This document shows positions 18,501 through 20,951 of a DNA stretch of 64,000 bases, one piece after another. Below the pieces are notes generated by a model. The model was not told the origin of the DNA and did not search any database. It saw only the letters and a list, made by a program, of their open reading frames with translations. A program made the translations under genes and the position numbers. Source of the DNA: a virus (taxonomy: Duplodnaviria > Caudoviricetes); IMG/VR virus record IMGVR_UViG_3300044645_001661; one strand, written 5' to 3'. The number at the start of each line of letters is the position of its first letter. The stretch's first letter is position 1.

Positions 18501-18665
18501 ATGGAAGAAATTAAAAAACAATATCCAAATCCATCAGATTTAAACAATTTGTATGGGCACACTGATTTGGAAGGATTTTCAAAATATTTGGGTATAAATT
18601 ATGATACTCTTCTTGAAATAAATAAAAAAAATGCAGAAGTTATTAGAAATTCAAAGACGGCTTGA
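18501..18665 (+). CDS. Small hypothetical protein
   Basis: ATG at 18501 inside ORF-track ORF 18405. Confidence 0.4.
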   Translation: MEEIKKQYPNPSDLNNLYGHTDLEGFSKYLGINYDTLLEINKKNAEVIRNSKTA

Positions 18666-18746
18666 CAGAACAAACATCTTGATGTATTATATACTTTGTT
18701 CAGGGGAGAGATCCACTGGCATTTAGGACTTTCCTACAGTCCTATC

Positions 18747-18828
18747 GGGTAGGTGTCCGAGTGGTTAATGGAGGTGGACTGTAAATCCACTGGCTCTGCC
18801 TACGGGGGTTCAAATCCCTCCCTGCCCA
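18747..18828 (+). tRNA. trnY: tRNA-Tyr(GTA)
   Basis: GGGTAGG/CCTGCCC acceptor; GTGGA-CTGTAAA-TCCAC; variable arm. Confidence 0.95.
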
Positions 18829-18830
18829 CC

Positions 18831-18859
18831 TTGACAATCAAATCCCGATCTGATATGAT
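18831..18859 (+). promoter_or_regulatory. Sigma70-type promoter
   Basis: TTGACA-17 nt-TATGAT; similar promoters at 18662, 20312, 21671, 32031 and 36511. Confidence 0.7.
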
Positions 18860-18934
18860 ATGGGAGTTGAGAGATCAACTGCGGCACTCCCCTTTGGTAG
18901 GTTCAGGAGTGGCGGCGATAGGAACCTACTTTAT

Positions 18935-19008
18935 GTCTCAGTAGCTCAGTGGAACAGAGCAACCGCCTTCTAAGCGGTCGGTCGTTGGTTCGAATCCAAC
19001 CTGAGACG
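18935..19008 (+). tRNA. trnR: tRNA-Arg(TCT)
   Basis: GTCTCAG/CTGAGAC; ACCGC-CTTCTAA-GCGGT. Confidence 0.95.
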
Positions 19009-19033
19009 CTTGGAGATTTATTCTCCAAATTAT

Positions 19034-19105
19034 TCCCCTATAGCTCAACGGCAGAGCAGAGAGCTGTTAACTCTAAGGTTCCTCGTTCGAATCGAGGTGG
19101 GGGAG
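19034..19105 (+). tRNA. trnN: tRNA-Asn(GTT)
   Basis: TCCCCTA/TGGGGGA; anticodon loop CTGTTAA. Confidence 0.93.
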
Positions 19106-19362
19106 TCGGAAGGACTGGAAATGTCTGGGACTTCCTCTAAATCCTAACTTTTGTTAGGTCGGGGACTTGATCGCCCCCGTTCGTAACAGAAAACGCTGGA
19201 CAAACTTTGGAGGTATAAACCCTTGCAAGGTCTCCCACCCCATTTGGGTGCCTTCCTGAGAACAGGAAAAATAAGGTTTGGTGTTTTCTTTTATCACTGC
19301 CCTCTAATGCAGTGAAAATCGCAGAAAGTGTCTTCTGCGGGTGGTGGTCACTCACTACCCAT
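19106..19362 (+). ncRNA. Candidate large structured phage ncRNA
   Basis: At least eight consecutive hairpins in a GC-rich stretch with no credible ORF, directly after tRNA-Asn. Confidence 0.6.
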
Positions 19363-19515
19363 TAACCTCTGGTATTCTATTGCTAAGGATATAGGTGTCA
19401 TAATGATTAATATTTTTAAAAAAGTTTATTTGAAGATAAAAGAATATATTGACTTTAAAAAAGTCTCTAAAAAATGTAAGGAAGAGGATCCATACATTTA
19501 TAAATAAAACTAAAA

Positions 19516-20298
19516 ATGTCTAATAACATATTAATTACATTTGGATGTAGTTGGACTTTTGGTGAAGGGTCTGGTTATGTTGATGGAATGAGTGAAGTTG
19601 AATATAAAAAAATTCAACATGATCCAAAAATATGTTACGAAAACTCTTGGAGAAAAGTATTAGTAGACCATTATAATTTAGTTCATATAAATTTTTCTGT
19701 CTCTGGAAGTAGTAATCAAAGACAATTTAAAACTGCTAGAGAATATTTCGTAACTGAGAAATGGAAAAAATTAATTAATAATCCTAAAAACAATGTGGTT
19801 GTTTTATGGGGAATTACTAGTACTTATAGAAATTATTTTTGGTGTAAAGATACTAGAAGATATGAAAATATTTTTTATAATTTAAAAGGAGATAAAATAG
19901 AATATAATAATTATCAAGATAAATTAGCAGAAGCAATGCTAAAGTGGTCTTATAACAGAGAAGTTGAAGTTGAAGTAATAAAAAACGAAATTTTGTTTTT
20001 TAATCATTATTTTAATCTAGTTGGAGTTAAAAACCTTTGGTTTGATACCTTTAATTTTATTAATTATGGAGAAAAATTTAATAATTTTTTAGATGAATCT
20101 TTAGAACAGAGAGATTTATTATCAATGCTTTGTTATGAACATGCTAGAAAATCTAATATTAAACTAATATTAGATAATAATTTTAAATATGCTGAAGAAA
20201 GTGGACTAATAAATTCTTTTAGTTATCATCCTAAAAAAGATCAGTATAAAATTATTGGTGAGTATTTTATTAGGAAACTTAAAAAATACTTTAAATAA
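19516..20298 (+). CDS. SGNH/GDSL-hydrolase-like protein
   Basis: ITFGCSWTFGEG (block I-like), NFSVSGSSN (block II-like), C-terminal YHP. Confidence 0.55.
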   Translation: MSNNILITFGCSWTFGEGSGYVDGMSEVEYKKIQHDPKICYENSWRKVLVDHYNLVHINFSVSGSSNQRQFKTAREYFVTEKWKKLINNPKNNVVVLWGITSTYRNYFWCKDTRRYENIFYNLKGDKIEYNNYQDKLAEAMLKWSYNREVEVEVIKNEILFFNHYFNLVGVKNLWFDTFNFINYGEKFNNFLDESLEQRDLLSMLCYEHARKSNIKLILDNNFKYAEESGLINSFSYHPKKDQYKIIGEYFIRKLKKYFK

Positions 20299-20348
20299 AC
20301 CAATAAATAGTTGACAAAATAATTTGTCTCTGTTAAAATAAAATCATC

Positions 20349-20864: not shown

Positions 20865-20951
20865 GGAAGGGCAATCCGATTGGCGACGGAACCTGTCTTG
20901 AAAACAGTTGAGGTGTTAAAGCCCTTGGGGGTTCGACTCCCCCTCCTTCCG
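20865..20951 (+). tRNA. trnS: tRNA-Ser(TGA)
   Basis: GGAAGGG/TCCTTCC; loop CTTGAAA; long variable arm. Confidence 0.92.

Follow-up and report, generated by a model that had tools for sequence, protein, structure and literature searches.

The window, the whole 64,000-nt stretch of DNA that we analyzed (IMG/VR virus record IMGVR_UViG_3300044645_001661), derives from a T4-like cyanophage whose nearest isolates are Kyanoviridae. It encodes 11 tRNA genes together with one wcaG RNA and one PhotoRC-II RNA (ARAGORN, Rfam). GC content is ~50% between 18650 and 19400, compared to ~25-30% in the flanks, and this GC-rich block contains two promoters, tRNA-Tyr, tRNA-Arg(TCT), tRNA-Asn(GTT), and then a hairpin element at 19108-19360 on the + strand. 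The promoters, at 18662 and 18831, are of the consensus sigma-70 type. A transcript of tRNA-Arg, tRNA-Asn, and the element would be driven by the second of these (TTGACA-17-TATGAT, 18831-18859, + strand, 11/12 matches), and the consensus scan found no further promoter-like site between it and the element. The tRNA-Asn(GTT) gene (19033-19107, + strand, by ARAGORN; Rfam tRNA 58.8 bits at 19034-19105) has its discriminator base at 19105 in the Rfam alignment and does not encode CCA; its end, at 19105-19107, adjoins the first module of the element at 19108, so that the element begins 2-3 nt 3' of the tRNA.

Downstream of the element the window retains only a 24-nt tRNA remnant (19366-19389, + strand). 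It corresponds to the 5' third of a tRNA: in a relative (L073), the tRNA behind the element's last hairpin begins with a sequence that matches the remnant at 22/24 positions. ARAGORN called no tRNA at the remnant. Behind the remnant lies an AT-rich stretch (19400-20340, ~20% GC) with a 260-codon ORF at 19516-20298 that has no Pfam match, followed by a new consensus promoter at 20311 and tRNA-Val; this arrangement suggests that a cassette has been inserted among the tRNA genes. Pfam searches of the small ORFs flanking the element returned nothing except a tail lysozyme upstream. A tRNA at 20865-20950, which scores 48.8 bits as tRNA-Sec in Rfam (threshold 47 bits) and which ARAGORN calls tRNA-Ser(TGA), is most likely an ordinary long-arm tRNA-Ser.

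The preliminary description characterized the element as a GC-rich, non-coding stretch built of hairpins, and our analysis bears this out. Its GC content is ~50%; no reading frame is conserved, the longest open frames switching strand and frame among relatives; and the + strand folds with a minimum free energy of -98.4 kcal/mol (z = -4.96), which none of 200 shuffles equalled (- strand, z = -3.58). The architecture in the window, A-P1-P2-M1-H1-H2-H3, is the longest and fullest set of modules seen in the family, and short AU-rich linkers join the modules. Module A (19108-19135) is a 5' hairpin with an AAYN loop, an outer helix of 5 bp (19108-19112/19131-19135), and an inner helix of 5 bp (19115-19119/19124-19128) that replaces the GAC/GTC register first assigned to this hairpin. 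P1 (19143-19158) is a 6-bp hairpin with a UUUU loop, and P2 (19160-19179) a G-rich 5-bp hairpin with a 10-nt loop. M1 (19189-19288), on which RNAfold and RNAalifold agree, is a four-way-junction domain of ~100 nt, closed by a long-range stem of 13 bp (19189-19201/19276-19288) with an extension (19206-19208/19269-19271) and bearing three hairpins (19209-19235, 19237-19250, and 19254-19267). The remaining three modules are H1 (19294-19315), a hairpin of 6-7 bp with a conserved 8-nt loop, CCUCUAAY; H2 (19321-19338), a 6-bp hairpin with a near-invariant AGUGUC loop; and H3 (19339-19360), an 8-bp hairpin with a GNCACU loop that abuts H2 without a linker. All modules are given on the + strand. Every hairpin listed in the preliminary description was found where it had been placed; as an account of the whole fold, that list had missed the 13-bp stem of M1. 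Each helix has comparative support.

Homologs show the structural covariation expected of an RNA of this kind, with none of 500 shuffles reaching the observed covariation score in either of two alignments. In the first, comprising H1-H2-H3 from 63 distinct sequences, 98.4% of cells are standard pairs, compared to 91.9% in shuffles, and two-sided changes occur in 107 cells, compared to 27.5 in shuffles; sliding the partners by 1-3 columns lowered pairing to 28-50%. The second, comprising 22 full-length relatives of the window's type and 70 pairs, is 97.7% paired, with double changes in 15 pairs and in 63 cells, compared to 18.9 cells in shuffles. H1 (98.9% of cells paired) has double compensatory changes in two pairs (U-A to C-G in 4/63 sequences, C-G to U-A in 5/63), H2 has double changes in three of five variable pairs (14, 6, and 10 of 63 sequences), and H3 in four pairs (up to 27/63 sequences). 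The M1 pair 19208/19269 is U-A in 14 sequences and C-G in 8, and the inner hairpin of the first M1 arm has been swapped for other palindromes or deleted among relatives. The closing pair of P1 is G-C in four of seven full-length relatives and C-G in the other three; P2 is 100% paired in seven relatives, where it is conserved and hence uninformative for covariation. The outer pairs of module A alternate between A-U and G-C (27/16) and between A-U and U-A (31/16), and the inner closing pair between U-A and C-G (34/14), as counted over 51 unique sequences that passed a pairing filter and are mostly module-A copies, with a few chance or reverse-strand matches; these switches establish the inner helix in the register given above.

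Wobble pairs identify the strand. Five G-U pairs lie in the closing stem of M1, and H3 has further ones. Read from the other strand, each of these would be an A-C mismatch; it is therefore the + strand transcript that folds, in the same orientation as the tRNAs. We conclude that the element is a real structured RNA encoded on the tRNA strand within a tRNA operon.

More than 120 IMG/VR contigs from T4-like cyanophages, most of them uncultured, contain homologs of the element. They were retrieved with four independent motifs, exact or degenerate: the H1 hairpin (66 contigs), the H2-H3 unit (more than 117), the 3' side of M1 (39), and module A (73). H2-H3 is present at at least 124 loci, which represent 88 unique variants. 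A covariance model of H1-H2-H3, R1, matches the window at full length at 19292-19364 (98.4 bits, E 5.5e-24), a score that is partly circular in that R1 was built from 63 distinct viral sequences including the window's own; the R1 search found no second copy in the window. Separately from R1, a word-11 blastn search of 50,697 phage records matched one isolate, the freshwater Synechococcus phage S-SRM01, with 84% identity over the 3' 175 nt. Here a 207-nt version of the element exactly fills an unannotated gap between tRNA-Asn(GTT) and tRNA-Thr, at record positions ~184352-184558. Among 185,579 bacterial and archaeal species, each represented by one genome, the H2-H3 pattern gave 71 hits, none of which had the stems or matched R1 (best score 20.8 bits). 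As far as tested, the family is therefore confined to phages, and S-SRM01 is its sole carrier among sequenced isolates. In the marine Synechococcus phage S-CAM9 an unannotated 193-nt gap between tRNA-Asn and tRNA-Val (L248:774-966) has no Rfam match; its small 5' hairpin resembles module A, and the gap may hold a distant relative of the element or another new spacer RNA.

The preliminary description took the stretch to be a single unit of ~255 nt. It is instead a mosaic of modules that have been shuffled, lost, and replaced independently: the 88 unique variants sort into 24 architectures of 67-262 nt. Their common layout is module A; optionally P1-P2; optionally a middle domain, which may be M1, an unrelated M2, or a tRNA-like M3; then H1 or a different hairpin, X1; and finally H2-H3. 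The shortest forms set H1-H2-H3 directly against tRNA-Asn. P1 is missing from most relatives and fused directly to H2 in others, with P2 travelling alongside it, and in place of M1 relatives may have M2, M3, or nothing. M3 retains a T-arm-like hairpin and is called as a tRNA by ARAGORN in two contigs. Searching with module A also retrieved arrays that have A and M3 and lack H1-H3; no module is therefore universal, which weakens the case for any one loop being essential. In one relative (L051:1514-1586) the H1 loop is the reverse complement of the usual one, with the stem and H2-H3 intact, which looks like a flip across the inverted repeat of the stem. At many loci (e.g., L032, L005, and L212) H3 or M3 is directly followed by a conserved element of ~95 nt, bounded by TAGGTG and CACCTA, that precedes an odd tRNA (His(atg) or Leu(caa) by ARAGORN); this ~95-nt element matches no Rfam family, and the window lacks it. 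The tRNA arrays also contain genes for HNH-type homing endonucleases (upstream flanks of L008, L016, L040, L048, and L061; L249:800-1200; L250:1197-1481), in a place equivalent to that of segB in T4, and homing endonucleases of this type are a plausible driver of module shuffling.

Whatever its internal composition, the element is bracketed by tRNAs in most relatives. It starts 1-2 nt after tRNA-Asn(GTT) in 73 of the 88 variants, and in 63 of the 88 its 3' end lies 2-5 nt short of a further tRNA, which may be Thr, Val, Leu, Met, or Ala. In several of the remaining variants tRNA-Asn is divergent or truncated, or module A is directly preceded by a consensus promoter; the promoter that replaces tRNA-Asn in some relatives fits an RNA gene. 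In three contigs (L004, L211, and L218) module A is preceded, in place of a standard tRNA-Asn, by a tRNA-Asn-like gene that ARAGORN missed; its anticodon loop contains GTT, its D region is enlarged, and its T loop is atypical.

Such bracketing means that processing of the RNase Z and RNase P type would free the RNA, as the preliminary description had supposed. This proposal holds for the relatives and for the 5' side in the window; on the 3' side it does not carry over to the window, where the downstream tRNA is truncated, so that RNase P cannot generate the end of the element. As we also found no terminator after H3 in the window, the 3' end is undefined there. Relatives of the element are covered by contigs assembled from lake and estuary metatranscriptomes (two studies): one contig bridges tRNA-Asn, module A, and M1, and another, of 209 nt, spans P1 to H2. 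These contigs, from four RNA runs in which DNA carry-over is possible, show presence in RNA libraries, short of transcription, ends, or abundance.

We propose, with a probability of roughly 60%, that these elements are stable modular RNAs that share a transcript with phage tRNAs, are cut out of it by the enzymes of flanking-tRNA maturation, and offer their conserved loops as recognition surfaces to partners. The early-type promoter at 18831 would transcribe tRNA-Arg, tRNA-Asn, and the element together; 3' maturation of tRNA-Asn, by a cut after the discriminator base at 19105, would yield the 5' end of the element; and in relatives an RNase P cut at the next tRNA, 2-5 nt past H3, would yield the 3' end. 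The terminal hairpins, A and H3, would cap and protect the ends of the RNA, which would accumulate as a stable species. The independently folding modules, strung on short AU-rich linkers, are shuffled by evolution, with tRNA-Asn and module A nearly always kept together. The working part is probably the near-invariant loops of H1, H2, and H3, which a protein or another RNA would recognize, possibly in trans, and which would be more than spacers. Counting against this reading are the inverted H1 loop of L051 and the lack of enrichment of sites complementary to the H1 loop in the window (10, compared to 14 expected by chance).

The main alternative, possible but in our judgment rather unlikely, is that the element acts purely in cis, as a spacer whose hairpins shield the ends of precursors, keep neighbouring tRNAs from misfolding, and determine where RNase Z, P, or E cuts within AU-rich linkers; the excised pieces would have no function of their own and would be discarded. 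A spacer would sit where the element invariably does, inside tRNA arrays and at fixed short distances from tRNA ends, and could lose or swap modules without obvious penalty; other spacers of these arrays are structured too (an abiF-type motif before tRNA-Arg, manA between tRNAs), and the copy in the window survives without a downstream tRNA. Yet in H1, H2, and H3 it is the loops that hardly vary and the stems that diverge through compensated changes, the opposite of the pattern expected from simple insulators. A 100-nt four-way-junction domain also far exceeds the needs of a spacer, and in some relatives the element has a promoter of its own and no upstream tRNA to process.

A more specific role for the conserved loops, which we consider improbable, would make the H2-H3 dumbbell part of an assembly or docking device. 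In one version the RNA self-associates by kissing of the H2 and H3 loops, within a molecule or head to tail between molecules as in the rings of phi29 pRNA, and so forms an RNA scaffold; in the other, the AAY triplets of the module A and H1 loops dock on the GUU anticodon of tRNA-Asn, much as a T-box specifier would. The H2 and H3 loops are complementary over 6-7 bases and could form 6-7 bp, with the commonest pair at -8.1 kcal/mol; their mirrored sequences also explain a weak match of the reverse strand to R1 (24.7 bits). One contig (L203) has a G to A change in the H2 loop together with a C to U change at the paired H3 position, and a contig pair (L011/L015) carries a G-U-compatible change. 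The loops are otherwise invariant except for variants that argue against kissing: two unique variants, from three contigs, in which a central U of the H2 loop has become C without compensation, and a mismatch at the fifth loop position, which affects 7 of the 58 unique H2-H3 sequences and among them that of the window, whose own loop pair is consequently at -4.7 kcal/mol. Three directed scans of IMG/VR for further loop variants returned chance matches only, so that support for kissing comes down to a single compensatory event. If the scaffold version were true, M1, M2, and M3 would be alternative cargo or ligand-binding modules.

Docking on tRNA-Asn would account for a linkage to this tRNA that is far tighter than to other neighbours, and for the loop triplet, which is AAU or AAC in all 51 sequences passing the module-A filter and likewise in the aligned H1 loops; it could, for example, shield the anticodon from a host anticodon nuclease. 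Against it, the element matches no T-box family and lacks both an antiterminator and a regulated downstream gene, and a closed tetraloop may be what module A forms at its tip. We dropped a possible link between the H1 loop and the anticodon stem of tRNA-Asn, as the hexamer that they have in common is not kept in the tRNA-Asn of S-SRM01.

That the stretch is evolutionary debris or a DNA-level element without RNA function, composed of decayed tRNAs or of landing sequences for recombination or homing endonucleases, is very improbable: the arrays do contain HNH endonuclease genes and truncated tRNAs, M3 does resemble a tRNA in its T-arm-like hairpin, and the mosaic pattern does imply frequent recombination, but compensatory substitutions and strand-specific G-U pairs show that a folded + strand transcript is under selection, tRNA models give no score for H1-H3 or M1, and diverged yet compensated stems in >120 contigs are unlike the signature of decay.

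The tRNA arrays of cyanophages hold several large structured RNAs: manA, abiF-type motifs, tmRNA, and now this family of hairpin modules. Three contigs (L014:9501-9537, L008:1585-1621, and L010:2367-2403) and S-SRM01 (L001, ~2690-2730) carry the abiF RNA motif (RF03085), separated by a few bases from tRNA-Arg(TCT) downstream; in the window tRNA-Arg(TCT) is preceded by a different structured leader (18863-18930). A tmRNA of the permuted, cyanobacterial type occurs, away from the place of the element, in the arrays of three relatives (L059:1399-1648, L043:1366-1640, and L013:3971-4223; Rfam 72-109 bits), and at a further locus (L030:6151-6307) the permuted-tmRNA model alone matches, at 47.9 bits. 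In Synechococcus phage RN05-S, manA (L249:122-331) occupies precisely the interval from tRNA-Arg to tRNA-Thr and would be excised like a free RNA, which casts doubt on its catalogue label as a cis-regulatory RNA.

The hairpin-module family has >100 natural variants, covaries clearly, and is carried by a phage that is in culture together with its host (S-SRM01 on Synechococcus sp. KCZYC6); it therefore offers a tractable entry to the role of such an RNA during infection. Its beads-on-a-string modularity, with alternative 100-nt domains at one site, is a natural experiment in RNA domain shuffling. We suggest that the family merits an Rfam entry, as spacers of this kind are now left blank in phage annotations.

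How does the element compare with known RNAs? A search of Rfam 15, as the preliminary description had suggested, matched no family to the element, either at gathering thresholds over the whole window or at E <= 10 over 18600-19600, and the alternative modules in 14 related loci matched none either. In the literature on cyanophage noncoding RNAs, PeSL, and S-SRM01 we found no description of it. The element thus defines a previously undescribed family of phage-encoded structured RNAs, absent from Rfam 15. Like manA (RF01745) of marine cyanophages, it is a large structured RNA of cyanophage tRNA arrays, the manA of RN05-S filling its gap between tRNA-Arg and tRNA-Thr just as exactly; it differs from manA in sequence, fold, and upstream tRNA, and manA was ruled out by the lack of a hit at E <= 10 (18600-19600), with RN05-S as a positive control at 77.8 bits. 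A tmRNA, the permuted cyanobacterial form included, was ruled out by ARAGORN and Rfam, which found none in the window. The preliminary description had also named CfrI of cyanophage S-PM2 as an RNA of a tRNA cluster; CfrI is instead an antisense RNA to psbA and to the F-CphI homing-endonuclease gene, at an entirely different genomic location from that of the element, and is ruled out (PMC2984593). Likeness to a T-box specifier is limited to the AAY triplet in two loops, and a T-box was ruled out by the lack of both a hit at E <= 10 and an antiterminator, and by the presence in relatives of a tRNA, rather than a regulated gene, downstream.

Functional RNAs can be cut from tRNA precursors by the tRNA-processing machinery, as is the 3'ETS of leuZ in Escherichia coli. 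That RNA is a short, weakly structured sponge of the host, in contrast to the 67-262 nt, highly structured, phage-specific RNAs described here. Other structured RNAs associated with phages include the phi29 pRNA, which assembles via two mutually complementary loops, and GOLLD and ROOL, which often adjoin tRNA genes; the element has no homology to them (no Rfam hit), its loop pairing is hypothetical, and to our knowledge the packaging motors of T4-like phages need no RNA.

The best positional analogs of the element are rnaC (species 1) and rnaD (species 2) of T4, for which we know of no function even after decades. R1, which models only the 3' module, gave no hit in rnaC or rnaD when the tRNA region of T4 was searched unfiltered (best score 8.1 bits, elsewhere in the locus), and inspection revealed no motifs in common; rnaC ends in a T-arm/acceptor-like domain that the element lacks, and we know of no evidence that rnaC or rnaD are modular mosaics. 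Like the element, they are encoded on the tRNA strand among the clustered tRNA genes of a T4-like phage, and they are released along with the tRNAs, as we propose for the element. In T4, rnaD begins 1 nt after tRNA-Arg and rnaC 6 nt further on, in agreement with the analogy first drawn in the preliminary description. This is the same layout of a stable RNA abutting a tRNA, and we count it in favour of the element being a stable RNA made and released together with the phage tRNAs.
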